Assembly (NCBI GenBank): GCA_964247135.1
Contig: CAXTTL010000039.1
Location: 1 to 26,811 of the forward strand
DNA: 26,811 nt
Direction of reading: 5' to 3'
From: an uncultured Deinococcales bacterium
Lineage (GTDB): Bacteria; Deinococcota; Deinococci; Deinococcales; JAAFIG01
Shown here: in pieces, positions 1,147-17,047 of the stretch
Layout of the letters: every line of letters begins with the position of its first letter
How positions within the stretch are numbered: position 1 is the stretch's first letter
The notes under the pieces: generated by a model
What the model was told of the DNA's origin: nothing
Databases searched by the model: none
Seen by the model: only the letters and a program-made list of their open reading frames with translations
Position numbers and translations under genes: made by a program

Positions 1147-2409
1147 ATGAAAAGTACGATCCAATTTGAAAACAATTTCAAAAACATTGGCAAGGTTTGT
1201 TTGTTCAGTCTGACACTGCTGGGATTCAACGCTTGCAATTCGAGTCCTGCGTCAAATCAAAGCTCGAGCAACCCCACCCAGACACGAACGATGGCAATTC
1301 AGTACGCTGTGCCGGAAGCCGATGGTCAGGGGCGAAGCGTCTGGTTAGGTGGACGCTCTGTGTGGTTGGGTGGACGTTCTGCTTGGGCTGGGGGACGATC
1401 TGTCTGGCTAGGTGCAGATACCAGTATTACTCTCGCTGAAAACTACGACGCCTGGAAACAAATACACCTTGATACAGCACAGGGTCTTGCGAAAAAATTG
1501 GGTGCAGGGGTCAAGGTTGCCGTGATAGATACTGGCGTGGATTACACGCATCCTGCTTTTCAAGGTCGTATGGCAAATCCTTCCGAATGGCGCGATTTTG
1601 TTGACAATGACAACGATCCACAAGAAGTCGGTGTTGGTGGTGTGGATGCTGGTTTTGGTCATGGAACTGGTGTGGCTGGGGTGATCGCACAAATTGCCCC
1701 CAAAGCAATCATCTTACCGATTCGGGTGCTTGGACCAAATGGTTCTGGCGATGCCACTGTGGTTGCCAAAGCCATCAAGTACGCGGTCAGCGTTGGCGCT
1801 CAGATTATCAACTTGTCACTTGGAACAGCGGGCTTTGATTGTGATCTTCAGACTGTGTTATCCCAGGATGTACCCGAAGGGGTTTTTGTGGTGATGTCGG
1901 CGGGTAACAATGGCACGACAAATATTCCTTACCCAGCGGCAACAAGTAGGTACAGTCCAAATCTGTACTATAGTGCCGATCCAGCTTTGAAAGCACAAGT
2001 TCTGGCTTGCGGTGTGACCTCGAGCAGGAGTGATGCGTTAACCAATCGAACCGTTGGCGTTGGCAGTGTGAGCACCATCAATTTGGATCATAAATCAAGC
2101 TTTAGCACTTACGGAAAATATTTGGAAATGCTTGCCCCAGGTGAAGGAATCTACACGGCTGTTCCTGGTGGTTTGTTGGGTTCTTGGAGTGGAACAAGTT
2201 TTGCTGCCCCAATGGTTTCTGGAGCACTTGCCTTGGCTGCCGCCGAAACCCTGAAATCAACGGTCAGTATGCCAATGTTGGCGCGTTACGTTTCAATCAG
2301 TGCGGACAATATTGATGTTGCCAATCCTGAGTATGCTGGACTGGATTACTTGGGACTCGGACGATTAAACATCTATGCTTTCATCAAGAAAACAATCGTT
2401 CCTCAATAA
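1147..2409 (+). CDS. S8 subtilisin-like serine protease lipoprotein (subtilase 1) with 4x heptapeptide repeat before the catalytic domain
   Basis: Catalytic motifs VAVIDTG (Asp), HGTGVAG (His), GTSFAAP (Ser) and oxyanion SAGN; lipobox-like LLGFNAC. Start moved to ATG 1147 because the upstream extension of the 985 ORF looks non-coding. Confidence 0.92.
   Translation: MKSTIQFENNFKNIGKVCLFSLTLLGFNACNSSPASNQSSSNPTQTRTMAIQYAVPEADGQGRSVWLGGRSVWLGGRSAWAGGRSVWLGADTSITLAENYDAWKQIHLDTAQGLAKKLGAGVKVAVIDTGVDYTHPAFQGRMANPSEWRDFVDNDNDPQEVGVGGVDAGFGHGTGVAGVIAQIAPKAIILPIRVLGPNGSGDATVVAKAIKYAVSVGAQIINLSLGTAGFDCDLQTVLSQDVPEGVFVVMSAGNNGTTNIPYPAATSRYSPNLYYSADPALKAQVLACGVTSSRSDALTNRTVGVGSVSTINLDHKSSFSTYGKYLEMLAPGEGIYTAVPGGLLGSWSGTSFAAPMVSGALALAAAETLKSTVSMPMLARYVSISADNIDVANPEYAGLDYLGLGRLNIYAFIKKTIVPQ
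1330..1413 (+). repeat. Four tandem 21-bp coding repeats: GRSVWLG GRSVWLG GRSAWAG GRSVWLG
   Basis: gggcgaagcgtctggttaggt / ggacgctctgtgtggttgggt / ggacgttctgcttgggctggg / ggacgatctgtctggctaggt; differences are mostly synonymous. Confidence 0.95.
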
Positions 2410-2422
2410 ATAAACTGAAAAT

Positions 2423-2465
2423 CTCGAGTCTTGATTGATGCAGATCAGGACTCGGGTGGTTTCTT
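2423..2465 (+). terminator. Hairpin after subtilase 1
   Basis: ctcgagtcttgat (2423-2435) pairs with atcaggactcggg (2444-2456) with 2 G:U pairs; followed by tggtttctt. Confidence 0.6.
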
Positions 2466-2477
2466 GAGTTTGAAGAC

Positions 2478-2618
2478 TCATACGGAATTAACGAGAACAC
2501 TCCGTTATTCCGCTTCGCTCTACAACTCCGTTAACCTCGTTGATTCCGTACTTTTGCCACTCCCGTTGGTCGGGGGAAGAGTCGATAAAGCATGACTGTT
2601 CCCCGCAATTTGGTATCA
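2478..2618. repeat. ~140-bp modular palindromic intergenic element (SNR/MITE-like, Deinococcus-Meiothermus type)
   Basis: Ends tcATAC...GTATca. 15-bp IR 2481-2495/2536-2550 enclosing actccgtta twice and cgcttcgctc; core ctcccgttggtcggg; second 11-bp IR 2573-2583/2594-2604. Only one copy is in the window, and the family resemblance is from memory. Confidence 0.6.
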
Positions 2619-2715
2619 GATTGCTCACAACGGAATTGAACAGGTGTGATAGCACTCAAGCAGTAGGCTCCAAACAGCAGAACCAACCTTCGGGTTTTGC
2701 CAAACACTGAATCGA

Positions 2716-4725
2716 ATGGTGATTAAAATGTCGATGAACGCTGCGAATTTCAATACCAATCATTCTCGAGTACCACGCGTGCTCGAGGTTGATGATTTGA
2801 TTGATAATGCGCAAGCGGCACTTGAAAAAGAACCTGCTCAAGCGCTCGATTTCGCTCTGATGGCTGAACAATTGGCAAGCGATGGTCAGTATTTTGATGG
2901 TTTGGCAAAAGCACTGTTTATCGCTGGCAATGCACAACATAAACTCGCACATTTCAAACCAGCAATAACCTTGCTGGTTGCAGCCGAGTTACACTATCGC
3001 AATCTCAGTGACAAATCTGGTGAGCTTGATACACTGCTCGAACTGAATCGTGTTTATCGAGCCATTGGCGATATTGCATTGGCTGGTGATTGCCTGAATC
3101 AAGCACTTGGTTTAAGTCATGATCTTAAAAGAGATGATGCTCGAGCTGATGTCTTTAATGGTCTTGCAGCCATATCACATACCTTGGGTGATGCCAAACA
3201 AGCACTGCAATGCTTACTCCAATCACTTGAGATTCGTCGTGTGATTGGAGATCGAAAAGGCGAGATTGACTGTCTAAACAATCTAGGTGTTCTGCAAAGA
3301 CACGCTGGAGAATATGCAAGTGCAGTTGAAACGCTTTTTGAATGCCATAAACTGATACGAGAACAAGCTCGAGAACCTGTTTTGGAAACGGCTTGCCTCA
3401 TGAATATTGGTACGGTTTATCAGGATCAGGGGCAATATGATGCCGCTTTGGTTCAATTCCAAAGCGTTCTTCAGATTGCACAAACCGCAAACCTGCCACA
3501 ACTCGAATCAATCGCTTTAACAAACCTTGCCGAGACGCATTTACTCATGGGTTCTTTCAGCGAAGCCTTATTGCTTTATGATGAAGTGTTTGTCACTGCA
3601 CAAATGTCAGGATATTCGGTAACCGAGATCGACGCCCTTGAAGGGATCGCTCGGGTTCATATCAATCTTGGACAACCCAGAAAAGCCCTGTCTGCCATTG
3701 CTCGAGCGCTTGAGATCAGCCGCAATTCTGGTGACCGTCACCGTGAAATTTTGCTGCTCTTAGACCTCGCCAAAACTCAAAATTCTTTGGGGGACATCCA
3801 TCAAGCCATCGACGCGGCTCGAGAAGCCATCGGACTTGCGACCAATGCCAGCGCCAAAAAGCTTCATCACGACGCTCAAGTTCAACTCTCCAGCCTGCTC
3901 GAGTCGGCTGGCGATGTGGCTGGCGCGTTCAAACATTACAAAATCGCGCATCAACTCGAGCGCGAGTTGTTCAACGAAGAATCCGACCGGCGTTTGCAAG
4001 GTTTGAGTGCCAGGTTCGACCTCGAGCGAGCCAGGGCGGAAGCCGAAATTTACCGCGAGCGAACCTTAGAGATTGAACAGGTCAACAAGACCCTCGAGCA
4101 CAAGGTTAAAGAGCGCACACTCGACCTTGAACAGGCTCAGATTGAAACCGTCACACGGCTGGCGCTGGCTGCCGAATACCGAGACGACAACACCGGTCAG
4201 CACACCTACCGCGTGGGTCATTACGCCGCCCTGCTGGCACAAGCCATTGGGATGCCAGAACTCGAGGTTCAGGCGCTGAGGATCGCGGCGCGACTTCACG
4301 ACGTGGGTAAGATTGGTATTTCTGACCTAATCCTTTTAAAACCAGGCAAACTGACCCCGAATGAGTACGAACTGATCAAAGACCACACCACCATCGGCGC
4401 TCAGATTTTGTCCGGCGGGAAGTCATCGATTTTAAAACTGGCAGAAGAAATCGCCATGACCCACCACGAACGCTGGGATGGCAACGGCTACCCGAACCAA
4501 CTTGCGGGCGATCAGATTCCATTGGTGGGTCGAATTGTGGCGGTCGCCGATGTTTACGATGCGCTGACCACCGAACGACCCTACAAAAAGGCTTGGACGC
4601 ACGAGGAATCGATCAGCGAACTCGAGGCTCAGGGCGGCAAGATGTTCGATCCGAAGATTATTGAAGTTGTGCGGGTTGCCTTGGCTTTCATCCCGAATGT
4701 GCAACCCTTTCCCGAACATGAGTAA
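2716..4725 (+). CDS. TPR-repeat HD-GYP c-di-GMP phosphodiesterase
   Basis: N-terminal ~420 aa of helical TPR-like repeats (e.g. CLNNLGVL, CLMNIGTVY), a coiled-coil linker, then RDDNTGQH, RLHDVGKIG, HHERWDGNGYP, VADVYDALT and RPYKKAW. No TM segment. Exact start uncertain (2716/2728/2734). Confidence 0.92.
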   Translation: MVIKMSMNAANFNTNHSRVPRVLEVDDLIDNAQAALEKEPAQALDFALMAEQLASDGQYFDGLAKALFIAGNAQHKLAHFKPAITLLVAAELHYRNLSDKSGELDTLLELNRVYRAIGDIALAGDCLNQALGLSHDLKRDDARADVFNGLAAISHTLGDAKQALQCLLQSLEIRRVIGDRKGEIDCLNNLGVLQRHAGEYASAVETLFECHKLIREQAREPVLETACLMNIGTVYQDQGQYDAALVQFQSVLQIAQTANLPQLESIALTNLAETHLLMGSFSEALLLYDEVFVTAQMSGYSVTEIDALEGIARVHINLGQPRKALSAIARALEISRNSGDRHREILLLLDLAKTQNSLGDIHQAIDAAREAIGLATNASAKKLHHDAQVQLSSLLESAGDVAGAFKHYKIAHQLERELFNEESDRRLQGLSARFDLERARAEAEIYRERTLEIEQVNKTLEHKVKERTLDLEQAQIETVTRLALAAEYRDDNTGQHTYRVGHYAALLAQAIGMPELEVQALRIAARLHDVGKIGISDLILLKPGKLTPNEYELIKDHTTIGAQILSGGKSSILKLAEEIAMTHHERWDGNGYPNQLAGDQIPLVGRIVAVADVYDALTTERPYKKAWTHEESISELEAQGGKMFDPKIIEVVRVALAFIPNVQPFPEHE

Positions 4726-4833
4726 GGTTTACAACTCCTGAACATCAATTCGGCAAAATTCACACTCTAGATTCCACCTCTCACGCCGCAACCCTTATAG
4801 TGTTGCAATGGACTCCAGGGTGGTGAGGTTTTA

Positions 4834-6441
4834 ATGCAGACGTTCTCGCAGTACGCTGCCACGCGTCCACTCCGATCATCCTCGAGTGGCACGGCAATTG
4901 GTGCGGGTACGGCGGTTGCCGAAAGCATTCAAACTTTCGCTGGTGTGGACGTGGTGACTGGAATGCCCGTGATCGTTTACACCATGCCTGGACAACCGCC
5001 CAGCATTGCTGAGGTTATCAGTGAAAGCATTCCTGTGGTGCTCGAGACTGGAATCCAAGACCAAATGGGTTTTGTGGTTGTCTCGAGCGCCCCTGGTTAT
5101 TTGCCGTTGCGGCTCGGGGTGTCTCAGGCGCGGCTCGAGTGGTTGACGAAATGCAGCGCCAAAGCCTTGTCCGACGCGCACGCTGGCGGTCTGGTGCACG
5201 GTGATTTCAACCCAAGCCACTTTTTTGTGCAGGGCGACCATTTGCTGCTCGAGGGTTGGGGTTTGAACTGGCAGAACGCCCAACCCGATTTTACCCCGCC
5301 CGAAGGTCAAGGCACGGCAGCCGCCGACGTGTTCGCCTGGGCGCGAACCATGCAAGCTTTTGGCAAAGGCGATCCGCGCAAATTGCTCGACGGCGAGATG
5401 GGACGCCTGATTGGGCATTGCCTGAATCCAAAACCTCAAGAACGCCCCACCGCGCTCGAGCTGGTGATTGCGCTCGAGCAAGTGATTGGCAAGAAAATCC
5501 TGAAACCTGAAGTCAAAACCGTACATTTGGATCAACCAATCGAATCTGAAATCAAACCTGAGAAACTCGAGAACACGCTATCAATTGTGCCAGAGACGCT
5601 CGAGACGCCAAGCGCTCAAACGATTGAGCCTTTAAAGCTTGAACCAACCCAGACCGTTGACCCACTGATGCCGATTGATGAGGGCATCAAAATTGTTGCC
5701 ATCGCCAAAGCCCCAGAAGGCATTCAGATTGGTGAAGCGCAAACCTCGACCGACCCAGCGCCATTGAATCCACCAACGCTCGAGAATCCAACCCCAACTC
5801 AAGCTCAAGTCCTCGAGCCAAACAGCCAATCAGAACATGACCTGCGCGAACCAGAGAACCTTGCCGCAGACGAACCCGACATTGTGCCCAGTGTTCGCCC
5901 AGAGCACGAACCCGTGCCCTTGCCAAGTCACGATGGCAGCATCGAACCAGGAGTTGTGCTCTACAAAGACGGACAACCGCCTGGCGACACCATCCGAGTC
6001 GGCTTTGACGATGATGATTCCTGGCGAAGTGTCAAACAGTATACAAGACCAAAAACCAATCCACTGATTCTTCCAATCGCACTGGTCGTGGCGGTCTTGC
6101 TTGGAATTTTGGGCGTTGTTTTACTGATCCGAAAAGCTCCACCAGCCACAACGGGCAACAGCATTCAAACCCCGTCAATTACGAATCCAAGCCAGAACAG
6201 CATTGTGAATTTTATTCTGAAATCCTCGAGCAACCAAACGGCGCGATTGACCGTGATTTCCGCCCCAGCCAAATCCAACCTCGCATCGGGCGCGTTGCTC
6301 GCCACCATCCCAGGTCCGGTCTTGTTCCCGTACCCTGGCGTGTACAAAGTGCGGGTCAGTATGCCCAATTTTGCCCCAGGCGATGTGACTGTGAACGTGC
6401 CGCAAGACAAAGAGATCGTGATTCAATTGCGGCAACCCTAA
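4834..6441 (+). CDS. Membrane-anchored Ser/Thr kinase-like (probably pseudokinase) protein with Pro/Glu-rich linker and extracytoplasmic C-terminal domain
   Basis: LSDAHAGGLVHGDFNP, FTPPE, AADVFAW and CLNPKPQERPTA resemble kinase subdomains VI-XI; TM helix LILPIALVVAVLLGILGVVLLI; RBS gagg upstream. Confidence 0.75.
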   Translation: MQTFSQYAATRPLRSSSSGTAIGAGTAVAESIQTFAGVDVVTGMPVIVYTMPGQPPSIAEVISESIPVVLETGIQDQMGFVVVSSAPGYLPLRLGVSQARLEWLTKCSAKALSDAHAGGLVHGDFNPSHFFVQGDHLLLEGWGLNWQNAQPDFTPPEGQGTAAADVFAWARTMQAFGKGDPRKLLDGEMGRLIGHCLNPKPQERPTALELVIALEQVIGKKILKPEVKTVHLDQPIESEIKPEKLENTLSIVPETLETPSAQTIEPLKLEPTQTVDPLMPIDEGIKIVAIAKAPEGIQIGEAQTSTDPAPLNPPTLENPTPTQAQVLEPNSQSEHDLREPENLAADEPDIVPSVRPEHEPVPLPSHDGSIEPGVVLYKDGQPPGDTIRVGFDDDDSWRSVKQYTRPKTNPLILPIALVVAVLLGILGVVLLIRKAPPATTGNSIQTPSITNPSQNSIVNFILKSSSNQTARLTVISAPAKSNLASGALLATIPGPVLFPYPGVYKVRVSMPNFAPGDVTVNVPQDKEIVIQLRQP

Positions 6442-6454
6442 AACTCGAGCATCA

Positions 6455-6486
6455 AAAAATCCCACCGCGAAATGGCGGTGGGTTTC
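6455..6486. terminator. Bidirectional terminator between the convergent kinase-like gene and typA
   Basis: cccaccgc-gaaatg-gcggtggg (6461-6482) flanked by an A-run and ttt. Confidence 0.75.
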
Positions 6487-6504
6487 AAAATCAAAACTCG
6501 AGCT

Positions 6505-8286
6505 TTATTTACGCATGTTGGGTTCAAGCACGCGCTTGCGAAGGCGAATGCTTTGCGGCGTGACTTCGACCAGTTCATCGTCCGAAATGTACTCGAGTGC
6601 TTCCTCGAGGCTCATTGGACGAACTGGAGTCAAACTGACGGCATCGTCCGCGCCACTGGTGCGCATGTTGGTCAGTTTCTTGGATTTGCAAACGTTGACG
6701 TTCAAATCCCCAGCGCGTCCGTTGCTGCCGACAATCAAACCGACGTAAACCTCTGCGCCAGGTTCGATAAAGAACACGCCACGATCCTCGAGTTTCCAAA
6801 TCGCGTAAGCGAAGGCATTGCCTGGCTCCATGGCGACCAAGCTGCCGTTCTGACGGGTTTTGATCTCGCCGGCAATCGGGGCGTAACCGTCGAAGACGTG
6901 GTTCATGATGCCCTCGCCCTGGGTCATGGTCAAGAAATGCGTGCGGAAACCGAACAGGCTGCGGGCTGGAATCTTGTACTCGAGCCGCACGCGTCCGCCT
7001 TGGTTGTCCATGTTGATCATGTCGCCCTTGCGTGAACCGAGCGTTTCCATGACTGGACCCATTTTGCCTTCGGGAACGTCAATCACCAGATGCTCGTAAG
7101 GTTCGTGGTTGACACCGTCAATCATGCGGGTAATGACTTGCGGGGTGGAAACCTGCAACTCGTAACCCTCGCGGCGCATGGTTTCGATCAAAATCGAAAG
7201 GTGAAGCTCGCCGCGCCCCGAAACCACGTAATCTTCGCCTTTTTCTTCGACGCGCAAGGACACGTTGGTTTGAGCCTCTTTGAACAGACGATCCCGAATG
7301 TGACGGCTGGTGACGTACTTGCCCTCTTTGCCCGCGAATGGGCTGGTGTTCGGACCAAAGGTCATCGATACGGTTGGCTCGTCCACGGTGATGGTCGGCA
7401 AGGCTTCGGGGTCGGCAAAATCGGCAACGGTGTCGCCCACGCCAACATCCTCGAGTCCAGACAGCGCTACGATATCTCCCGCGTAAACCTCTTCAACCTC
7501 GAGCCGTTGCAAACCCATGTGGGTGAACGGTTGGGTCACTCGAGCCTTGCTGGTCGAACCGTCTTTGTGCATCAACATCACGTACTCGTTGCGTTTGACC
7601 TTGCCGCGTGTGATGCGCCCCAAGGCGATGCGCCCCAGGTAATCGGAGTAATCGAGGTTGGTCACGAGCATTTGAAACGGCTTGTCAATTTCGGTGGCTG
7701 GGGCTGGAACGTGTTTGACAATCAATTCAAACAGTTCGTCGAGGTTTTCTTTGGGGACTTTCAGGTCGGCAAATGCCTTGCCTTCACGTGCAATCGCGTA
7801 AATGATCGGAAAATCGAGTTGTTCGTCGGTCGCGCCCAAGTTCGCCATCAAATCAAACGTCAAATTGACGACTTCGGTGATGCGCTCGTCTTTGCGGTCA
7901 ATCTTGTTGATGACCACAATCGGATGCAAACCAAGCTCGAGCGCCTTTTTCAGCACGAAACGGGTTTGCGGCATTGGACCTTCGGCGGCATCCACCAACA
8001 ACAAACAACCGTCCACCATGCCGAGCACGCGTTCGACCTCGCCACCGAAATCGGCGTGACCTGGCGTGTCCATGATGTTGATCTTGATGTCGTGAAAGAG
8101 CACAGCCGTGTTTTTGGACAAAATCGTGATGCCACGTTCACGCTCGAGATCGTTCGAGTCCATGACGCGTTCGGCAACCACTTGGTTGTCCCGAAAAGTG
8201 TGCGTTTGACGAAGCATACCGTCCACCAGGGTTGTTTTACCGTGGTCAACGTGAGCGATGATGGCAATGTTCCTAAATTCCTGCAT
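6505..8286 (-). CDS. typA: Translational GTPase TypA/BipA
   Basis: MQEFRNIAIIAHVDHGKTTLVD, ERERGITI, DTPGHADFGGEVER, NKID, GRGELHL and C-terminal KKLTNMR...SLEEALEYI..DELVEVTP. Start at 8286; the ORF-track extension to 8502 is taken as leader. Confidence 0.98.
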   Translation of the reverse strand: MQEFRNIAIIAHVDHGKTTLVDGMLRQTHTFRDNQVVAERVMDSNDLERERGITILSKNTAVLFHDIKINIMDTPGHADFGGEVERVLGMVDGCLLLVDAAEGPMPQTRFVLKKALELGLHPIVVINKIDRKDERITEVVNLTFDLMANLGATDEQLDFPIIYAIAREGKAFADLKVPKENLDELFELIVKHVPAPATEIDKPFQMLVTNLDYSDYLGRIALGRITRGKVKRNEYVMLMHKDGSTSKARVTQPFTHMGLQRLEVEEVYAGDIVALSGLEDVGVGDTVADFADPEALPTITVDEPTVSMTFGPNTSPFAGKEGKYVTSRHIRDRLFKEAQTNVSLRVEEKGEDYVVSGRGELHLSILIETMRREGYELQVSTPQVITRMIDGVNHEPYEHLVIDVPEGKMGPVMETLGSRKGDMINMDNQGGRVRLEYKIPARSLFGFRTHFLTMTQGEGIMNHVFDGYAPIAGEIKTRQNGSLVAMEPGNAFAYAIWKLEDRGVFFIEPGAEVYVGLIVGSNGRAGDLNVNVCKSKKLTNMRTSGADDAVSLTPVRPMSLEEALEYISDDELVEVTPQSIRLRKRVLEPNMRK

Positions 8287-8418
8287 GAAAAACCTCGAGT
8301 CGGGCTGAGAAAGTAACAAACCCAAAAAACTCGCCCGATACTCGAGATTCGAGTTGGGCGGCGATGAAAGGCGTGAATTCTCGGGCGTGTTGGCTCGAGC
8401 GCCCGAAAGAGTGTAGCA
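8287..8418 (-). promoter_or_regulatory. typA promoter (extended -10 TGcTACACT) and structured 5' leader
   Basis: Reverse complement of 8410-8418 is tgctacact. Hairpins at 8381-8406 and 8332-8360, the latter followed on the minus strand by a U-run (A-run 8324-8329). Confidence 0.55.
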
Positions 8419-8452
8419 CGAATAACGGGGGATGAAATGGTAAAACAGGTTC

Positions 8453-9016: not shown

Positions 9017-9042
9017 ACCTCTCGAGCGGTTAAACTACCCAA

Positions 9043-9537: not shown

Positions 9538-9588
9538 ACTTGGGGCTGCATCGCTGTAAACCCTCGCTCGAGAGCGCAAACTAAACCC

Positions 9589-10215
9589 GTGAACACCCTC
9601 ATTTTTGGCGCAACCGGCGGCATCGGTGCTAGCCTCGCACGAATTCTTCCAGCGCCACTAATTCTTGCCGCCAGAAATTCCAAGAAACTGCGCGAACTCG
9701 AGCTTGAAACGGGCGCTTACGCCGTGCCAACCGATGTTTGCAACGAACTCCAACTTGATGCTCTGGCGCAAGAGATACCTGCTCGAGGTGGTTTAAAAGT
9801 GTTGATTTACGCCGTGGGTGACATTGCTCCCGCCAGCATTCTCGAGTCGAGCGCCCAAGACTTGGAGCGCGTCTGGCGTGCCAATGTTTTGGGGGCGCAA
9901 CTGGTTTTAAAACATTTCTCGCCCTTGCTCGAATCGAATGCTCGGGTGTACTTGCTTGGTGCAAAACAAGAGTTGGTGAGTTTCAAAAACTTTTCTGGGT
10001 ACGCCGCCAGCAAAGCCGCCTTGGACAGCCTTGCCGCCATTGCCAGGCTCGAGTTTCAGTGTGTTGTGACGGTGGTGAAACCACCAGCCGTGAACACCGA
10101 TTTCTGGCAGAAGTTGGGTGCTCGAGCGCCGCGCAACGCGATCAGCCCCGAGGCTGTGGCACAGGCGATAGCTTTGGATTTGGCGCAAGAATCCAAACTT
10201 GAGTTGCGGCTTTAA
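9589..10215 (+). CDS. Short-chain dehydrogenase/reductase
   Basis: GATGGIG Rossmann motif and YAASK catalytic motif. Confidence 0.9.
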   Translation: MNTLIFGATGGIGASLARILPAPLILAARNSKKLRELELETGAYAVPTDVCNELQLDALAQEIPARGGLKVLIYAVGDIAPASILESSAQDLERVWRANVLGAQLVLKHFSPLLESNARVYLLGAKQELVSFKNFSGYAASKAALDSLAAIARLEFQCVVTVVKPPAVNTDFWQKLGARAPRNAISPEAVAQAIALDLAQESKLELRL

Positions 10216-10216
10216 A

Positions 10217-10245
10217 ATAAAAACCCTGCTCGAGACAGGGTTTTA
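10217..10245. terminator. Bidirectional terminator between SDR gene and tRNA, with CTCGAG in the loop
   Basis: aaaaccctg-ctcgaga-cagggtttt (10220-10244). Confidence 0.7.
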
Positions 10246-10322
10246 TGGTGCGCACGACGGGGATCGAACCTGTGACCTCAGCCTTAGGAGTGCCGCGCTC
10301 TATCCAACTGAGCTACGTGCGC
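10246..10322 (-). tRNA. tRNA-Arg(CCU)
   Basis: Reverse complement GCGCACG TA GCTC AGTTGGATA GAGC G CGGCA CTCCTAA GGCTG AGGTC ACAGG TTCGATC CCCGT CGTGCGC A CCA; 77 nt, encoded CCA, upstream -10 TACACT at 10333-10338. Confidence 0.9.
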
Positions 10323-10434
10323 AGGGCTTTTTAGTGTAGCACTCGAGTTGGTTGTACTCAAGTGGAAAGCTTGAATGAGAGTTTCCCAAATTGCAGTGGT
10401 GCTATCTTGTAAAGGACGAGTTGAAAGGAGTTTT

Positions 10435-11223
10435 ATGCGGATCAAACATTTTCTTTTTGGCGGTGCAATGGCGGTTTCGCTGTTCGCGTGCGCTCCAGCG
10501 ACGCGCTACGAGGCGGATGGCGCATTTTCCTCGGAACCCGCGTTTTCGCAGGTGGTACGACCTGAACCAGTGACCAGCAAACCACCAATCAGTACCATTA
10601 AACCAGACACCACGCCGGTCAATACGAATCCAGCACCGGTTACACAGGGTACAACCGTGGTGGTTCAGCCAGTGGTCACGCCAACACCCGTGGCAACCCC
10701 CGCCGAACCAGATGCGCCAGATGAAGTTGTGGTTGGTGACGCCCCAGCCGCCAACGCTGGTGGCGGTGCAGGTGTCAACGTATTACCCGAATCGTACACG
10801 GCAACAACTGGCAACAATACCTATATTGACGATACCGGCAAGCAACTGATCGACAACCAAATTGGCAGTGACCGCTTTAACGCCAAAATTTTTGGCACAC
10901 CAGGTTTTGAATGGGTTGGCTGGTCGCGTCAAAACGTGTCCATGAATTTTAAATTTGCCTCTGAGCGCAAATTTACCAAAGTCAAAATTGGTTTCAATTA
11001 CAACTCTGGGGCGGGTATTTTACTGCCATTAAAAGTGACGATCAATGGCAAGTCTTTTGATTTAAAGGGCACAGAACTCAAACGCAACTCTCGAGGATTC
11101 TTGGTCTTCAATGTTGCATTTACTTCCAACCAGATCACCATTGATCTCGAGCGCAACCCAGCCCGTCAATGGATTTTGGTGGATGAAGTGAAATTTGTGG
11201 CGGTTCAACAAAACACGATGTAA
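10435..11223 (+). CDS. Lipoprotein with Pro/Thr-rich linker and C-terminal discoidin/galactose-binding-like beta-sandwich
   Basis: RBS aaggag then ATG 10435; lipobox SLFAC; P/T/V-rich stalk; C-terminal WVGW...FKF..ERKF.KVKI...WILVDEVKF. Confidence 0.75.
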   Translation: MRIKHFLFGGAMAVSLFACAPATRYEADGAFSSEPAFSQVVRPEPVTSKPPISTIKPDTTPVNTNPAPVTQGTTVVVQPVVTPTPVATPAEPDAPDEVVVGDAPAANAGGGAGVNVLPESYTATTGNNTYIDDTGKQLIDNQIGSDRFNAKIFGTPGFEWVGWSRQNVSMNFKFASERKFTKVKIGFNYNSGAGILLPLKVTINGKSFDLKGTELKRNSRGFLVFNVAFTSNQITIDLERNPARQWILVDEVKFVAVQQNTM

Positions 11224-11252
11224 TGCTGCAAAAAAGATATCAATACACGGTG

Positions 11253-11280
11253 GTAGGGGCGCTGCTTGCTGCGCCCCTAC
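11253..11280. repeat. GTAG-type REP-like palindrome
   Basis: GTAGGGGCGC-tgcttgct-GCGCCCCTAC, a perfect 10-bp IR overlapping the stop codon of the convergent gene. Confidence 0.7.
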
Positions 11281-12386
11281 TTGTCTGGTGGGTCCACCAG
11301 CGGGTCGAGCGCCTCTTCGTTTTGAATGAAGGCTTTCTCGAGCTTTAAAGTTGGCAGGAAACTTGCCAGCACGCCCACCGCGTCTTTCCAATGCCAGTCG
11401 AGCGTGACATACTTCCCAGAATTTAAGACCGCATACGAGTAACGCCCTGCCATGCTCTGCTCGAGTCTGGTGCGCAAAAGGCGTTGAGCGCCAATCGGGT
11501 TGGTCACGTCGTACCGCGCGGCAATCTGCAACAAGGGCAATCTGGCGTTCTCGAGTTTGGTCCAATCATCCTCGAGAAATGCCAGTTTGTTAAAGTAAAC
11601 GTCTTGCAGTACAGGTTTAAACTCGAATGGGACTTTTTGTTTGCCGTACAGTTCAAAATACTTTTTGCCCTCAGATTTTTGGGCGAAGCCATTGGCGAAA
11701 TTGTCGTTCCAAAATGCTTGGTTGGCGTCTTTTTTGCTGTAGATATCGCGGTAAATAAAATCGCCAACTGTTCTGGCTAGCCATGCTTGGTGCTCGTTGC
11801 GTTCTCTTGGAACAAATGGCGCGATCAAGACCAGCCCCTCGAGCCAATCGGGGTGCTCGTTTGCCAGTTTTAACGCCAGCAACGATCCCAAGCCCGAACC
11901 GACCAGCACGACCTTTTCTTTTTTGGAATCTCGACGTGCGGCAATCAACGCGTCTCGAGCGTCCTGCAAGTAATCGTTGGTGCTGACACTGCCAAAGTTC
12001 ACTCCGCTTGGCGCTTGCACCGTTTCAGCGCCCGTCATGCCACGGTATGAGACGCCATACAGGTTAAAGGATTCTTTCATCGCGCCTATGACTTTTTCAA
12101 ACATCCACGCGCCCGTGCCGCTGTCGGGCAGCATCACCAGTGTCCGACCAGCACCAGCGGCGTGATACAACGCTGCCTTCCCTGCCCGCAGTACAGGGTA
12201 ACTCGAGATCGGGGCAATCTTGGTGTCGTCCACCAAACGTTCGCTGCGTTTGCGTTCGTTGAAATTGGGTTCGACCACGGGCGGTTGCAAAATAATCAAT
12301 TGAAAAAACACGTAAAACACGCCAGCTACCAGGGCTGCCAGCAGCACGCTCGGAAAAATCCACCATCGTTTCACATCCCCGAGCAT
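11277..12386 (-). CDS. Membrane-anchored alpha/beta-hydrolase-fold protein with non-canonical catalytic residues
   Basis: N-terminal TM helix; SYRGMTG, DYLQD, VVLVGSGLGSLLALKLA..HPDWLEGLVLIAP and PLLQIAARYD follow the abhydrolase pattern. Confidence 0.8.
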   Translation of the reverse strand: MLGDVKRWWIFPSVLLAALVAGVFYVFFQLIILQPPVVEPNFNERKRSERLVDDTKIAPISSYPVLRAGKAALYHAAGAGRTLVMLPDSGTGAWMFEKVIGAMKESFNLYGVSYRGMTGAETVQAPSGVNFGSVSTNDYLQDARDALIAARRDSKKEKVVLVGSGLGSLLALKLANEHPDWLEGLVLIAPFVPRERNEHQAWLARTVGDFIYRDIYSKKDANQAFWNDNFANGFAQKSEGKKYFELYGKQKVPFEFKPVLQDVYFNKLAFLEDDWTKLENARLPLLQIAARYDVTNPIGAQRLLRTRLEQSMAGRYSYAVLNSGKYVTLDWHWKDAVGVLASFLPTLKLEKAFIQNEEALDPLVDPPDK

Positions 12387-12419
12387 AAGGCTTTGGGCGG
12401 GGACGATTGGCTCGAGAAG

Positions 12420-13199
12420 TCAATTTTGGATAATCCCCAGCATCGCGTCATGAATCAAGCCGTTGCTGGCAACAATTTTCTTGTCGTCATACAGGTAGGT
12501 TTCCCCTGTAAAGCTCGAGACCCGTCCGCCCGCCTCCTCGATCATCAATATGCCGGCGGCACAATCCCAGGCGTTCAGTTTGTACTCGAAAAAACCGTCG
12601 ATTCGTCCGCAGGCAATGTATGCCAAATCGAGTGCCGCCGCGCCAGGGCGACGCACGGGCAAGCCGAGCGCCAGGAACTTCTTAAAAATTTCGACGCTGA
12701 CAAGTGCCGCCTGGGTGTCATAGGGAAAACCTGTGGCGAGCATGGCGCGACCACTGAGCTGCGCGATGCTCGAGACCTTGATCGGCTTGCCATTCAAAAA
12801 TACGCCGCCGCCCCGAACGCCCGTAAAAACCTCATGACGGTTTGGGTCATGAATCACACCCACGGCACGCACGCCGTCGATCTCGAGCGCAATCGAAACG
12901 CAAAAAAATGGGAAACCGTGCGCGTAATTGACCGTGCCATCGAGCGGATCGACAATCCACTCGTAAGAACCCGTGCCAACACTGCCGCCCTCTTCACCCA
13001 AAATGCTGTGATCGGGGTGCGCCGCCAGAATGATTTTGCGAATGGTCTCCTCGCAGGCTTTATCGACCACCGTGACCAAATCGGAATCATTTGATTTGCT
13101 TTCGATCCCCAAATCTCCACCCAAATGCTCGAGTTGAATCTCGGCGGCGGCGGCGGCGGCTTTCAGGGCGGTTTGTAAGTACAGCTCTAGGTTATTCAC
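12420..13199 (-). CDS. suhB: Inositol monophosphatase family protein SuhB
   Basis: DLVTVVD, ILGEE, WIVDPLDGTVNYAHG, RRPGAAALDLAYIACGRIDGF and WDCAAG. Confidence 0.93.
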   Translation of the reverse strand: MNNLELYLQTALKAAAAAAEIQLEHLGGDLGIESKSNDSDLVTVVDKACEETIRKIILAAHPDHSILGEEGGSVGTGSYEWIVDPLDGTVNYAHGFPFFCVSIALEIDGVRAVGVIHDPNRHEVFTGVRGGGVFLNGKPIKVSSIAQLSGRAMLATGFPYDTQAALVSVEIFKKFLALGLPVRRPGAAALDLAYIACGRIDGFFEYKLNAWDCAAGILMIEEAGGRVSSFTGETYLYDDKKIVASNGLIHDAMLGIIQN

Positions 13200-13231
13200 G
13201 CCCCCGAGTTTACCGCGCTTTGGTCAGGTAT

Positions 13232-13264
13232 AAAAAAGACCTCGAGATCATGCTCGAGGTCTTT
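13232..13264 (-). terminator. Terminator of subtilase 2 with CTCGAG in both arms
   Basis: aaagacctcgag-atcatg-ctcgaggtcttt (13235-13264); the A-run at 13232-13237 gives a U-tail on the minus strand. Confidence 0.8.
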
Positions 13265-13280
13265 GGTTTTGGCGAATTGT

Positions 13281-15044
13281 TTATTGTGTGGCAAAGACCA
13301 TCGCATCGTCAACGTAAGCCGTGCCCGCAGTGGTTCCCCAGAAATCGGCGTAAACAATGGCGCTGGTGTGGGTGGCATCGGTGGTGAAACGGGTCGAGAC
13401 CAAAGTGTACGTGCTTGGACTGTAAAGAGCACTATGGGACAAAGCGCCCATCACAAGATCAGATGTGAAATTGTAAGCACCAATCGAAACGTAGCGATTT
13501 GGGGTTGAGGTTTTGACCCAAGCCAGGTAGGTGTACGTGGTGTTTGGCAAGAGTCCGGTCAAGGTACTGGTCGCATTCTGGTCAGTTGCCGAATTCAGCA
13601 TCAAGGCACGGCTTCCGCTTCTGGCATCGGAGCTGATAATGCTCGAGTTTGTCAAATTCCAGGCGCTGCTTGGAATGGTTTCAAAACCAGGGTTTCCAAG
13701 CAAGTTGATTTGGGTGTTGGGTATTGCAAACTTTGGCAGTTTTAAGATAAAACGTTGAATTTCGAGACCACCCTTGCCATGCCCCCAAATTGGACTGGTT
13801 TGATTGGCGTAAAGTTCAGTCCAAATACGGTCTGTCTCGAGGCTGCTGCCAAACGCCGCACCCAGTTGAGGGCGGTCGGCAACATTCGCCAGTTCTGACA
13901 TTGCCAAGGCAAATGCGCCAGTCACCAGCGGTGTGGAGAAGGAAGTGCCAGTGGCATAGGTGACGCGGTTGCTCGGGTACAAGGTATAGACCTTTTCACC
14001 TGGCGCAAAGGCGTAAACCCCTTCGCCTCGAGCGCTGAAGCTCGAGATGGCGTCCTTGTCATCAATGCTGCCAATGCCGAATAGGTAGCCTGACATTGAA
14101 TCCTGCAACGAGTCTTTGGCTGGGTAATCTGCATCTTTACCATTGTTGCCGGCGGCAGCAATCACATAAACACCTTTGGTTTTGGCGTAGGCAATTTCTT
14201 GATTCAAAGAAAGATTGGTTTTCACAGAACCAAGTGAAAGGTTAATAATTTGCACTCCGTTAAGAATTGCGTAATCGATGGCTTTGACGACATCGTCAAG
14301 GTTGCCTTTGCCTGTGGGACTCAGCACCCGAAGCGGCAAAATGGTGACTTTGGGCGCAATTTGCAAAATGATTCCGCTGACCGCCGTGCCATGACCATAG
14401 GCTTTCGCCGAGTTTCCATTGATGCCTGGATCATCGTTTGGCACGGTATCATTGTCTATATAGTCGCGCCATTCGCTGCTTGGCGCGAGGTTGTTGATCA
14501 AAGCTGGGTGGCTGAGGTCTACACCGGTATCAATGACAGCCACTTTAATGCCTGCACCAAAATTTTTGGCAATGCTATGGGCTTGGGGCAAACCGATTCG
14601 TTTAAACATGTCACTGTTTTGAACGGGCAGATTTGGAATGGTCGAACCGCTGCCCAATGTGGTCCAACCACTCGCCCAGGTGGCGCTGCCACTTGCCCAC
14701 ATGTTGCTGCCACTTGCCCAGGTGGAGGTGCCCAACGCCTCTGCCTCTTCAGGGTTTGCCAGCGCGTCGATGTTGTCGCTGACACTGCGAACCTCATAAC
14801 CTTGGGTCGATTGGTTGGTGCTGACAATGGCAAAACCAGCCTCTGGATGAAAGGCATTGACCCGTCCTTGGTAGCGTTGCTCGAGTGAAGCGACGGTGTC
14901 GGTCGTGGTCAAATTAACGCTGATCACGTATTTGGCTGCTTCATTTAAATTGGTTGTAATTTCAGGTTGCGTTCCGCATGAACTCAATAACCCTGTCAGC
15001 AGGGCAAAACCAAAAATTGTTGGAACTTTGAGTTGAGGGTTCAT
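13281..15044 (-). CDS. S8 subtilisin-like serine protease lipoprotein (subtilase 2) with heptapeptide repeats and C-terminal CBM4/9-like domain
   Basis: Lipobox LLSSC; VAVIDTG, HGTAVSG, AAGN, GTSFSTP; C-terminal NLLGNPGFE...W...LLPNTTYTYLAWVK...YVDD typical of CBM_4_9-like modules. Confidence 0.92.
   Translation of the reverse strand: MNPQLKVPTIFGFALLTGLLSSCGTQPEITTNLNEAAKYVISVNLTTTDTVASLEQRYQGRVNAFHPEAGFAIVSTNQSTQGYEVRSVSDNIDALANPEEAEALGTSTWASGSNMWASGSATWASGWTTLGSGSTIPNLPVQNSDMFKRIGLPQAHSIAKNFGAGIKVAVIDTGVDLSHPALINNLAPSSEWRDYIDNDTVPNDDPGINGNSAKAYGHGTAVSGIILQIAPKVTILPLRVLSPTGKGNLDDVVKAIDYAILNGVQIINLSLGSVKTNLSLNQEIAYAKTKGVYVIAAAGNNGKDADYPAKDSLQDSMSGYLFGIGSIDDKDAISSFSARGEGVYAFAPGEKVYTLYPSNRVTYATGTSFSTPLVTGAFALAMSELANVADRPQLGAAFGSSLETDRIWTELYANQTSPIWGHGKGGLEIQRFILKLPKFAIPNTQINLLGNPGFETIPSSAWNLTNSSIISSDARSGSRALMLNSATDQNATSTLTGLLPNTTYTYLAWVKTSTPNRYVSIGAYNFTSDLVMGALSHSALYSPSTYTLVSTRFTTDATHTSAIVYADFWGTTAGTAYVDDAMVFATQ
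14649..14732 (-). repeat. Four tandem 21-bp coding repeats: GTSTWAS GSNMWAS GSATWAS GWTTLGS
   Basis: Residues 105-132 of subtilase 2, at the same position relative to the catalytic domain as the repeats in subtilase 1. Confidence 0.9.
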
Positions 15045-15308
15045 CTTAAATTGGATTTTAAACAGATCACTCTTACAAAAATCTGACAGACAAACAGCCT
15101 AAAATGTTGTCGAGCAAAGGTATTTTTGTATTTCTTAGCGATTGTAAAGCTTGGTTTAGTGATACCCAAACACAATTCTTTACCAGACCAAGTAAGGTCT
15201 CGAGCTTTGACTTTAAGGGCTTGTGTGACGTCAGTTTGGCTTTGAAATAAGACAAGACCCGATCAATCCGAGACTTGAAAACCCAATCATCTCGAGATTT
15301 GCCTCATC

Positions 15309-15344
15309 AAAAAGTACCGCTCGAGAAACTTTCTCGAGCGGTAC
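15309..15344 (-). terminator. Terminator of the GGDEF gene with CTCGAG in both arms
   Basis: gtaccgctcgagaaa-c-tttctcgagcggtac (15314-15344) with an A-run at 15309-15313. Confidence 0.8.
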
Positions 15345-15364
15345 AATCGAGGCTTTTAAAAGAC

Positions 15365-17047
15365 CTAAGCCTTGACCTTGTTTTTGCCATCATTTTTGGC
15401 TTCGTACATTCTGGCATCGGCAAGTGAAAGAAGCTTTTCAAAATCGGGTAGGCTCAGATCATCGGCTACGCCAATACTGACCGTCACCTTTAAACCTTTT
15501 GCAATCCGCGCCCAATCGTGACTTTCGATTTGCTGCCTTAAGTGCTCAGCGATGCCGTGGGCGGTTTGGGCGGTGGTTTTGGGCATGACCACCACAAACT
15601 CTTCACCCCCGTAACGGGCGGCAATGTCGGTGGTACGAATGTGGGTGCGGGTCAAATCGGTGATTTCGGTTAACACCAAATCGCCAACATGATGCGAAAA
15701 CGTGTCATTGATGCGTTTAAAGTCGTCCGCATCGAACAGCAGCACGGTCAAGGGTTCTTGACTGGATTTGGCTTCACGAAACTCCGTCTCGAGCGTGTTT
15801 TCCAGATGACGACGGTTGTACAAGCCCGTCAGCGGGTCGCGCATGGCGAGAATCTCGAGTTCTCTGGCTTGAATCTCGAGCGTCTCCAATAAATTGGCTT
15901 TCTCGAGGTTGGCTTCCTCGAGCGCCTCGAGCGCCTGAGCAAGTTCGACGTTTCGCAGGCGCTGAATTTCGGATTCGGTGCGCAACTTTTCGACCTCGTG
16001 CTGGGCGCTGAAAACCCGCAAGCGCTGCTCCATGTTTTCATCTTTCATGATCCGTTCAAGATCAAAAAAGCGTTTGAAATACAGCAAAGCCTGGTCAAAA
16101 TGCCCCGAGCGCTCAAACGCATCCGAAAGGGTGCGCTGTATTTTGGCTTCGAGCGGACGCAAACCCAGACTTTGGGCTTTTTCAAGGGCTTGACGCAGGG
16201 TTTCAAAGGCTTGACTCGAATTTCCGGTGGCAAACTCGATGATGCCTTTTTGCCACAAGCAATCGACAATTTTTTCGCGCTTGCCCGAATTCTCGAGCAA
16301 GATCAGGGCTTGATCTAAAGTCTCGAGTGCCTCATCAAAGCGTTTTAAAAATCCCAACGATTCGCCCAAATTGATCAGGTTGATCGCCTTAAAATCGCTC
16401 AAACCATGAATTTCGCACAACTCGAGGGCTTGGCGCAGGGTGCGTTCAGCCTCATCGTAACGTGACAAGCTGGCAAAACTCGATCCCATATTGCCCAGAA
16501 TCGTGGTCTCACGGATTTCATCGTGTAAAGCCCGAGCGCGCTCCAAAGCCTCATTATAGACCACCAGCGATTCCTCGTCGCGTTCGAGCTGATTGTACAG
16601 AACACCAGAATTGATCAGGCTGACCAACAAACCCTGGGTATCATTCATCAGACGGTTGAGTTCGTGGGTGCGTTGCAAATACTGGACCGCCGAATCAAGA
16701 TCACCGATGGATGCCGAAACGGCTGCCAAAAAATTCAGGCAATCGCGTTCGAGTTGTGAATTTTCGAGTTCCAAGCCAATCTCAAGACCTTCACTCAGAA
16801 TGCTAAAGGCAGCCGTGTGATCCGCGCTCGAGTAGGCACAAAATCCCAAGCCGCGCAAGGCAAATCCTCGACCCAGTTTAAAATTGATCTGATCGGCTTT
16901 CTCAAGCGCCTGACGGCTTAATTCCAGACAACGACTGCGGTCGGTCAAACGCAATTCCCACGCTTGCTCATTTAATAATGTCACTTCCTCGAGCAAGCCG
17001 CTCGAAGTGTAGGCATCGTGAAATGTGCTCAAATCAATCGTGCTCAT
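15365..17047 (-). CDS. TPR-repeat diguanylate cyclase (GGDEF)
   Basis: TPR-like repeats, coiled-coil linker, then DPLTGLYNRR, DADDFKRINDTFSHHVGD, I-site RTTD and A-site RYGGEEF; no TM segment. Confidence 0.93.
   Translation of the reverse strand: MSTIDLSTFHDAYTSSGLLEEVTLLNEQAWELRLTDRSRCLELSRQALEKADQINFKLGRGFALRGLGFCAYSSADHTAAFSILSEGLEIGLELENSQLERDCLNFLAAVSASIGDLDSAVQYLQRTHELNRLMNDTQGLLVSLINSGVLYNQLERDEESLVVYNEALERARALHDEIRETTILGNMGSSFASLSRYDEAERTLRQALELCEIHGLSDFKAINLINLGESLGFLKRFDEALETLDQALILLENSGKREKIVDCLWQKGIIEFATGNSSQAFETLRQALEKAQSLGLRPLEAKIQRTLSDAFERSGHFDQALLYFKRFFDLERIMKDENMEQRLRVFSAQHEVEKLRTESEIQRLRNVELAQALEALEEANLEKANLLETLEIQARELEILAMRDPLTGLYNRRHLENTLETEFREAKSSQEPLTVLLFDADDFKRINDTFSHHVGDLVLTEITDLTRTHIRTTDIAARYGGEEFVVVMPKTTAQTAHGIAEHLRQQIESHDWARIAKGLKVTVSIGVADDLSLPDFEKLLSLADARMYEAKNDGKNKVKA

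Follow-up and report, generated by a model that had tools for sequence, protein, structure and literature searches.

Can an exported protease carry the peptide signal for the sensor that is encoded next to it? The question is raised by the 26.8-kb contig C39 (CAXTTL010000039.1) of an uncultured Deinococcales bacterium. The window analysed here is this entire contig, which belongs to a genome of 5.09 Mb in 386 contigs with 53% GC. The host is placed in Deinococcota, and the nearest named relatives of the protease are found in Truepera, Meiothermus and Deinococcales genomes. A first-pass annotation, made from the letters alone, described two subtilases (peptidase family S8) with tandem tryptophan-containing heptapeptides, each encoded beside a tetratricopeptide repeat (TPR) protein with an output for cyclic di-GMP (c-di-GMP), HD-GYP in one pair and GGDEF in the other. 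It proposed that the protease releases a peptide that tunes its neighbour. The four genes lie where it placed them, Pfam confirms their domains, and the co-oriented adjacency is present at both pairs.

We found that the window contains two copies of a conserved two-gene module, and several indirect results fit a cognate peptide-receptor system. We assign a probability of about 45% to the reading that the protease releases its own unit peptides and that these are imported and read by the TPR sensor.

Linkage of the protease and TPR genes

We defined the protease family by phmmer searches over all open reading frames (ORFs) of the genome, using pieces of the window's own proteins as queries. The genome holds a sharply separate S8 subfamily of nine members, whose mutual scores are 166-250 bits, compared with ≤64 bits for other S8 proteins. 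Eight of the nine genes have a co-oriented TPR protein as their immediate neighbour. These eight partners carry an HD-GYP domain (two), a GGDEF domain (two) or a HATPase histidine kinase (two); one is a TPR-only protein of 346 amino acids, and the last is truncated by the end of its contig. The other TPR-GGDEF and TPR-HD-GYP genes of the genome (C24, C11, C137, C10 and C234) have no adjacent S8 or repeat gene; a further one, C375, is truncated by its contig end.

Searched with a profile of the nine members, 37 of 41 related genomes contain full-length members of the family at E≤1e-30. At E≤1e-80, 121 of the 251 genomes sampled across Deinococcota, and 117 of 243 high-quality ones, carry it; by taxonomic family, the counts are 5/5, 78/103, 15/61, 0/12 and 22/69. 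Carriers include named Meiothermus and Deinococcus genomes. For a census of neighbours, 40 regions from 14 related genomes were picked by assembly quality and protease score, blind to the neighbours. Named Deinococcota contigs were added and three duplicate loci were removed, giving 62 family ORFs including the nine in this genome. Of the 53 family ORFs outside the genome, 31 are next to a co-oriented TPR gene, a class that includes loci where a second family S8 gene, and nothing else, intervenes. The rest comprise two with a TPR-GGDEF gene adjacent on the opposite strand, one with a TPR-CHAT gene two genes downstream, and 19 with none. One of these 19 loci has a divergent neighbour with a weak TPR_14 match, and 11 of the 19 partnerless proteases are long forms (≥590 amino acids) with a C-terminal extension.

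For a second, independent sample, the best family match per genome was taken from another 20 genomes. Of these matches, 11 have a co-oriented TPR gene next to them, one has a TPR gene at position +2, two have one on the opposite strand and six have none; among the neighbours at these six loci, two had no match in the domain queries or Pfam, and a third is an ABC ATPase. When pooled, 50 of the 82 examined family genes, from many genera, have a co-oriented adjacent TPR gene. Neighbourhood enrichment across Deinococcota, which the first-pass annotation had suggested as a check, is thus strongly positive in both samples beyond the genome itself. The intergenic gaps are often 1-47 bp (5 at L006, 8 at L047, 2 at L165 and 1 at L153). 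Gaps of a few bases at many loci suggest an operon, unlike both window pairs.

Several loci vary the arrangement. At L001:8901-12665 (contig C87), the partner is a hybrid kinase, TPR-HisKA-HATPase-REC, followed by a REC-HD-GYP response regulator, an order that two further genomes of the genus (L130 and L137) also keep. Such a two-component arrangement would reach the output that the partner in the first window pair carries as a fused domain. Family proteases stand in tandem at L134:5870-10943, L136:5528-13928 (genome G004), L159:6002-12559 and L052:6476-9213. At L134, two S8 genes precede one TPR-GGDEF gene, and at L136, a stretch of 8.4 kb holds three long forms that have no partner and share the unit GWNSWVS; a fourth copy with this unit lies elsewhere in the genome (L138). 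The one partnerless protease of the genome studied here, L003:6662-7972 (C78), has a repeat (SGWTSWASGWSV) nearly identical to that of the protease at L004:4490-5800 (C30), which has a TPR-GGDEF partner; the C78 protease may be a second producer for the C30 sensor. At L140:7381-10656, in one relative, a protease with five copies of GSVTAWSG is followed by a 1091-amino-acid eCIS_core-domain protein in place of the TPR sensor. An ABC-transporter ATPase gene adjoins the protease upstream in C316 (L002:127-2001) and downstream at L178:5963-6799, where it replaces the TPR gene.

The same genome shows a second protease-TPR theme. Four more distant S8 proteases, with an IPT/TIG-like N-terminal region and no W-repeats, are found in C8 (L010:4191-8988), C181 (L011:3225-7615), C185 (L012:4317-8865) and C57 (L013:4106-8777). 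Each lies directly 3' of a co-oriented AAA_16-TPR STAND protein of about 1000 amino acids, with gaps of -4 to 35 bp, and two of the four STAND proteins also have a BTAD (SARP-type) domain.

Repeat units and their conservation

In all nine family proteases of the genome, the catalytic domain is closely preceded by W-rich tandem units. The unit types are GRSVWLG, GRSAWAT, GRMSSWAS, GSIAAWAG, GRSGMWAF, WSTWGSS, G[ST]xxWAS and SGWT[ST]WASGWSV, the last found twice. A cassette has 2-5 near-identical units of 6-8 residues with the consensus G-x(2-4)-W-[AS]-[GST]-G, in arrays of 14-40 residues. At least two tryptophans occur in the 55 residues before the mature domain in 78 of 80 family proteins with a recognisable catalytic start, and tryptophan makes up 8.0% of this zone, compared with 1.2% of the mature domain. 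The W-W distance is most often 7 or 8, or 3+4 in units with two tryptophans. W-[AS]-[GST]-G forms a conserved frame, with glycine at +3 in 69%, and the 2-4 residues that precede the tryptophan are variable. The first-pass annotation had counted four W-heptapeptides in each window protease. This is correct for subtilase 1, whereas the fourth unit of subtilase 2 (GWTTLGS) has no tryptophan at the usual position.

Exact amino-acid copies of a unit (≥2) occur in 46 of 62 proteins. Over 127 copy pairs, such copies differ at 387 of 2,787 nucleotides, all synonymous by construction since exact amino-acid copies were preselected. When adjacent units were compared without this preselection, 1,689 codon comparisons from 78 proteins gave 857 identical codons, 498 synonymous differences and 334 amino-acid changes. 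This comparison indicates that the unit copies are old and that their protein sequence has been held identical. The three GRSVWLG copies of subtilase 1 illustrate the pattern: serine is encoded by AGC/TCT/TCT, leucine by TTA/TTG/CTA and arginine by CGA/CGC/CGA, and the first two copies differ at 7 of 21 nucleotides. Judged from these codon differences, the units are under selection to remain identical. Orthologs within the genus alter all copies together, as in GRSAWAT, GRRAWST and GRKAWAT, each present three times; further ortholog differences are GRSGMWAF versus GRSGMWAD and GSIAAWAG versus GLSAWAG.

A genome-wide scan for exact W-containing tandem units, which would reveal stand-alone precursor genes, placed every match of the G..W type within a family S8 gene. 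These account for 6 of the 13 matches, and the other seven are in other ORFs or reading frames and do not have the G..W frame.

Some family members carry unusual arrays. A-B-A arrays are found at L170:4277-5779, L174:4364-5809, L178:4464-5816 and L169:4531-5880, in the forms GSRS[FIM]WMG - GEWQAWAG - GSRS[FIM]WMG and ARRTVWING - EFTTWAS - ARRTVWING. In the GSRS[FIM]WMG arrays, a single position of unit A varies between genomes. The family member at L160:5791-6981 has five copies of the 6-residue unit AGAFVT with no tryptophan; the copies differ at synonymous sites only, and the neighbour is a 1037-amino-acid TPR-HD-GYP protein.

Position of the cassette in the zymogen

The Asp-His-Ser triad and the oxyanion asparagine (D128, H172, S351 and N254 in subtilase 1 numbering) are invariant across the 62 family members. 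An N-terminal cysteine after a hydrophobic helix is near-invariant in them (≥90%), and by a motif scan most contain a lipobox-like motif. The first-pass annotation described both window proteases as lipoproteins; each has a cysteine after its hydrophobic N-terminal helix, which would make it a putative lipoprotein, and the lipobox of subtilase 1 (FNAC) is non-canonical. For the protease, NCBIfam has no model at its cut-off, and the nearest sub-threshold models are mycosin, QhpE and PatA/PatG. A link to the WxG motif of type VII secretion was considered and rejected, as the mycosin match reached 117-127 bits against a cut-off of 278.75.

AlphaFold (AF2) models of subtilases 1 and 2 were built from 62- and 50-row alignments and have a mean predicted local distance difference test (pLDDT) score of 82.9 and 82.6, respectively. 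In subtilase 1, confidence in the mature domain begins at about residue 95, residues 54-93 have pLDDT <50, and no folded prodomain is seen before residue ~95. In subtilase 2, a prodomain at residues 39-98 is folded (pLDDT 80-97), and residues 101-108 and 111-135 have pLDDT <50. The best Foldseek matches of the subtilase 2 model are the unautoprocessed pro-subtilisins 3afg, 3whi and 2z2z. By these models, subtilase 2 is predicted to be a subtilase zymogen with a folded N-terminal propeptide, and subtilase 1 is not. The cassette of subtilase 2 is modelled between prodomain and mature domain, and that of subtilase 1 between signal peptide and mature domain.

In ordinary S8 proteases of other phyla, the propeptide end (VEYAEPN) is followed by the mature start (PNDP....QW) within about 10 residues. 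Both motifs are still recognisable in the W-repeat family (LEPN and P.N...W), whose cassette stands exactly between the two. By analogy with subtilisin biology, the cassette would occupy the autoprocessing junction.

Units of partnered and partnerless paralogs

We compared W-heptamers between paralogs within genomes. When each paralog has its own TPR partner, no identical W-heptamer is shared (0 of 64 pairs). The count is 3 of 47 for pairs in which a single member is partnered, and 10 of 16 for partnerless pairs. At <45% identity of the mature domain, 0 of 27 partnered versus 5 of 9 partnerless pairs share the unit, and at 45-55% identity the counts are 0 of 35 versus 2 of 3. Because the contrast persists within identity bins, it is not merely a matter of paralog age.

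TPR sensor

The partners examined, which include the family partners genome-wide, have no transmembrane segment. This agrees with the first-pass annotation, and the highest 19-residue Kyte-Doolittle mean is 1.31. The similar linker that it noticed in the two window partners, a helical one, is also real, and the partner consensus and linker phmmer matches reveal its conservation throughout the family. Across the census, the outputs are HD-GYP, HD-GYP+GGDEF, GGDEF, GGDEF-EAL, HisKA-HATPase(-REC), TPR only and CHAT. The TPR module and linker are constant while the output varies, which suggests that the TPR module is the input domain tied to the protease.

Pfam detects TPR_12 in the two window partners with E-values of 2.5e-32 and 3.5e-40. 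A profile of 29 partners gave 248 matches among the sequences of the PDB, of which the best 60 (E up to 1.5e-16) were inspected. They include Pins (5a7d, 5e-50), GPSM2 (3sf4, 4e-48) and KLC1 (2e-23), as well as OGT, AfsR and designed TPRs, with LGN/Pins and KLC ranging from E 5e-50 to 1e-17. The C-terminal half of the profile matches HD-GYP structures, the nearest being 4mcw. The Pfam matches of the partners include no HTH family, and their TPR matches are to generic families only. On this profile similarity, the sensor is predicted to be an LGN/KLC-type TPR_12 superhelix with a signalling helix and modular outputs, outside the RRNPP family.

In the first window partner, HDVGK at residue 528 and GYP at residue 591 are both intact (HD_5, E 2e-34), and the protein is predicted from domain and motifs to be an HD-GYP c-di-GMP phosphodiesterase. 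The second has GGEEF at residue 480 and RTTD (an RxxD I-site) at residue 471, with PF00990 at E 2e-42 and NCBIfam TIGR00254 at 169.5 bits against a cut-off of 37.4; domain and active-site motif predict a GGDEF diguanylate cyclase.

Occurrence outside Deinococcota

Among the S8 ORFs examined in about 70 loci outside the phylum, W-repeats were found in one metagenome-assembled genome, from Acidobacteriota. It contains two paralogous triads of a TPR-CHAT gene, a W-repeat S8 gene and a gene for a CHRD/FG-GAP protein (L057:3659-10318 and L191:3732-10546), with different units, GGSWSI and GQSWAI. These triads indicate that the module exists beyond Deinococcota, with a caspase-like output.

Proposed mechanism and alternatives

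In the protease, only the cassette combines paralog specificity, multiple copies and selection for identity, and in the partner, only the TPR module is constant; the peptide-sensor reading rests on these two properties and would explain the observations jointly. In the proposed mechanism, the exported S8 putative lipoprotein would autoprocess at the repeated W sites during zymogen maturation, and the cleavage would release several copies of one short peptide. An Opp/Dpp-type permease may take up the peptide (the genome has 26 SBP_bac_5 matches of the Opp/Dpp type), which would then bind the concave groove of the neighbouring TPR domain. Binding would switch the attached output, the HD-GYP module lowering c-di-GMP and the GGDEF module raising it. 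Each module would have its own peptide, and several modules could run in parallel in one cell. The signal may be either intercellular (quorum) or a private periplasm-to-cytoplasm report of protease export and activation.

A number of results weigh against this mechanism. The W-repeats are family-wide and occur also in the 26 of 82 members without a TPR neighbour (1/9, 19/53 and 6/20), so that the repeats may serve the protease itself. The genes of both window pairs are split by gaps of about 300 bp with terminator-like hairpins, and the gene order of pair 2 is reversed. The best 60 of the 248 PDB matches of the sensor profile contain no RRNPP receptor (Rap, NprR, PlcR, PrgX or AimR), and the module is therefore at most an RRNPP analogue, not a member. 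The 16 partnerless pairs in the unit comparison come mostly from two genomes (G004 and G008), and their counts are not independent. The S8 and TPR distances co-vary over 36 pairs (Mantel r = 0.67, reached by 0 of 2,000 permutations), which speaks for the mechanism, but the value is inflated by shared ancestry, and simple co-inheritance of linked genes would also yield it. The same applies to the ortholog comparisons, in which the HD-GYP and kinase classes have 68-82% identity in the repeat zone and 61-82% in the TPR domain versus 79-90% in both the mature protease and the output domain. The charge of the unit and the net charge of the TPR domain, a crude measure, are uncorrelated over 34 pairs (Spearman rho -0.06, p = 0.74). 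A complex prediction of TPR residues 1-425 with residues 54-95 of subtilase 1, run on a 29-row alignment and without controls, scored 0.02 against a mark of 0.32 and carries no weight in either direction.

The repeats might instead serve the protease only, as stacked substrate-like autoprocessing sites that form a stepwise activation timer or a tethered inhibitor, with the TPR gene linked for another reason, such as shared physiology (matrix turnover, nutrient proteolysis), and not reading a peptide. We consider this somewhat unlikely. It would account for repeats in partnerless members and for a disordered array at the propeptide/mature junction. The W-[AS]-x-G frame, which is conserved while the residues upstream of it vary, resembles a cleavage-site frame, and unit identity could reflect the fit to a single active site. 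However, autoprocessing needs no more than one site, whereas purifying selection maintains 2-5 identical copies. The sharing of units by partnerless paralogs with catalytic domains only ~40% identical (5/9), never seen in partnered ones (0/27), is unexpected if the protease's own pocket dictates the unit. The conserved pairing with TPR genes across at least six output types and two phyla would also have no reason. Another version keeps the TPR-cassette contact but places it in the cytoplasm, where the TPR protein would bind the cassette while the pre-protease is still unfolded and not yet exported, serving as its dedicated chaperone or as an export monitor, with no peptide release or import. 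As a monitor, it would couple the secretion load of the protease to the c-di-GMP, kinase or CHAT output. Binding of extended peptides is common among TPR domains, the profile matches to LGN/KLC agree with this, the cassette is disordered and multivalent, and a TPR-only partner of 346 amino acids would suit a chaperone; the specificity of cognate pairs would be needed here as well. We judge this version to be quite improbable because the cassette is placed after the prodomain at the cleavage junction, away from the signal peptide, because partnerless members retain the repeats, and because a chaperone role leaves the second-messenger enzymes and kinase outputs unexplained.

It is still less probable that the W-Gly repeats stay on the mature lipoprotein and position it, either by tethering it to the envelope or as a linker with a ligand such as cell wall, S-layer or polysaccharide. 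The long forms do carry a C-terminal CBM-like beta-sandwich, and aromatic-glycine repeats often bind carbohydrates. The arrays, however, are short (14-40 residues) and predicted to be disordered, they stand on the N-terminal side of the conserved motif of the mature start, at the point where subtilases are normally cut, and units that differ sharply between paralogs of one cell are unexpected for a common envelope ligand. Chance adjacency is the explanation to which we give next to no weight. Both families are indeed expanded in this lineage, as the first-pass annotation had cautioned: the S8 queries have 16-17 matches in the genome, TPR 28 (of 17,889 ORFs of ≥80 amino acids, phmmer E<1e-3), GGDEF 29 and HD-GYP 20. 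The 28 TPR matches in the 5.09-Mb genome would give an expected rate of <1-2% per neighbour, whereas the census found co-oriented adjacency in 50 of 82 genes across many genera, which, with the recurrence in another phylum, excludes chance. A cyclophane/RiPP (ribosomally made, post-translationally modified peptide) product, suggested by a sub-threshold HaaT TPR match, was rejected on the finding that no radical-SAM or modification gene adjoins the examined loci.

Comparison with known systems

LGN/Pins and KLC TPRs bind extended peptides in their concave groove, and KLC binds tryptophan-acidic motifs. They are the closest solved TPR relatives of the sensor by profile among the best 60 of the 248 matches. 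They are, however, eukaryotic scaffolds without enzymatic output, and the similarity indicates the TPR subtype, not a shared function. In cyanobactin PatE cassettes (S8 proteases PatA/PatG) and in the yeast alpha-factor precursor (Kex2), tandem peptide copies are freed by subtilisin-family proteases. The W-repeat family resembles these in having several short peptide copies in tandem, and PatA/PatG is among its sub-threshold NCBIfam matches. It differs in that precursor and protease are one polypeptide and that a sensor is encoded next door in place of a biosynthetic enzyme; unlike for PatE, no modification enzymes are encoded nearby in the examined loci. With pro-subtilisin E, pro-Tk-subtilisin and ProN-Tk-SP, the family shares the D/H/N/S catalytic residues, the folded prodomain (in subtilase 2) and recognisable propeptide-end and mature-start motifs. 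Unlike these zymogens, its members have a disordered cassette of identical W-units at the junction and are predicted lipoproteins, and subtilase 1 and the C87-type relatives have no folded prodomain.

Of the RRNPP(A) systems (Rap-Phr, NprR-NprX, PlcR-PapR, PrgX and AimR-AimP), the first-pass annotation had cited the receptors Rap, NprR and PlcR. The architecture is analogous, in that a cytoplasmic TPR-type receptor gene adjoins a gene carrying a short peptide, here a candidate one; homology of the receptor is the part of the comparison that fails, as the module's TPR is not detectably homologous by the PDB matches inspected. In passages of PMC11343458, RRNPPA pheromones are described as matured by extracellular proteases, re-imported by Opp and sometimes tandemly duplicated in one propeptide, and among its references is work on subtilisin, Epr and Vpr as producers of the CSF peptide of Bacillus. 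Each proposed step thus has a precedent in Bacillota, including maturation by proteases, import by Opp and tandem pheromones. These passages, together with abstracts of the RRNPP literature, offer three likenesses: many non-cross-reacting pairs that coexist per genome, tandem peptide copies in one precursor, and a precursor that is exported, cut by extracellular proteases including S8 and re-imported by Opp, where import and binding are for our module only proposed. The outputs of the module are C-terminal enzymes or none, versus an N-terminal HTH or a Rap-type interaction domain, and the candidate peptides lie inside a protease zymogen (an S8 protein of 400-650 amino acids), versus a small secreted propeptide gene. 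Its hosts are Deinococcota with two Acidobacteriota loci, versus Bacillota; abstracts of the RRNPP literature describe a Bacillota/Firmicutes system. The first-pass annotation knew of no description of such a system, and a full-text literature search, without the supplements in which neighbourhood tables could sit, likewise found none of a protease-TPR module; excerpts of PMC7159879 contain none either.

Features of the window

The coordinates of the two gene pairs are listed in Table 1. The order is protease to TPR gene in pair 1 and TPR gene to protease in pair 2. The terminators that had been reported between the paired genes correspond to terminator-like hairpins, and the count of sites like the one in pair 1 is not above that of shuffles in this region. 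Three further co-oriented ORFs (535, 187 and 408 amino acids) lie 3' of the TPR-HD-GYP gene at 4834-8316; none has a Pfam match at E≤0.01, and the first also has no NCBIfam match.

Table 1. Features of the two protease-TPR pairs in the window
Feature	Position	Strand	Description
Subtilase 1	1147..2409	+	Pfam Peptidase_S8 (PF00082), E 5e-37; short form of the W-repeat S8 family of putative lipoproteins
Subtilase 1, layout	1147..2409	+	Signal peptide with Cys30, no folded prodomain, repeats, then catalytic domain
Subtilase 1, repeats	1330..1413 (residues 62-89)	+	GRSVWLG, GRSVWLG, GRSAWAG, GRSVWLG
Terminator-like hairpin	2423..2456	+	14 pairs, weak T tail; between the subtilase 1 and TPR-HD-GYP genes
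TPR-HD-GYP	2716..4725	+	Pfam TPR_12, HD_5 and HD; linker from residue 414; HD-GYP at residues 487-648
Subtilase 2	13281..15044	-	Pfam Peptidase_S8, E 3e-36, and weak CBM_4_9; long form of the W-repeat S8 family
Subtilase 2, layout		-	Putative lipoprotein Cys23, folded prodomain 39-98, repeats, catalytic domain, C-terminal beta-sandwich ~462-585
Subtilase 2, repeats	14649..14732 (residues 105-132)	-	GTSTWAS, GSNMWAS, GSATWAS, GWTTLGS
Terminator-like hairpin	15314..15344	-	14 pairs (8 GC), TTTTT tail; after the TPR-GGDEF gene
TPR-GGDEF	15365..17047	-	Pfam TPR_12 and GGDEF; linker from residue 330; GGDEF at residues 401-557

Implications

If signalling proves to be wrong, a multi-copy, synonymously diverged and paralog-specific cassette at a subtilase junction still needs explaining, as does its linkage to TPR sensors across two phyla. 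If the mechanism holds, its new elements would be a precursor fused to a protease, a receptor fused to c-di-GMP enzymes, kinases or CHAT, and hosts in Deinococcota and Acidobacteriota. If the peptides are signals, they would constitute a phylum-wide communication or envelope-reporting system in a diderm lineage, for which we found none described. The practical appeal of the module is that it would offer one short linear peptide each time, many separate modules to a cell, with eight different units in this genome, and measurable outputs in c-di-GMP synthesis or breakdown and kinase activity. Synthetic peptides make the hypothesis easily testable, and the units are a potential source of independent peptide switches.

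In its broadest form, the reading is that Deinococcota and some Acidobacteriota have families of non-cross-reacting circuits, in which a pheromone cassette sits in the zymogen junction of the protease that releases it and an LGN/KLC-type TPR receptor is wired to c-di-GMP enzymes, histidine kinases or CHAT proteases. We hold this broad form only tentatively and regard it as doubtful, though possible. If true, RRNPP-like signalling would have arisen a second time and independently, in lineages other than Bacillota, with the peptide signal linked directly to c-di-GMP turnover and the output tied to the secretion of an extracellular protease.

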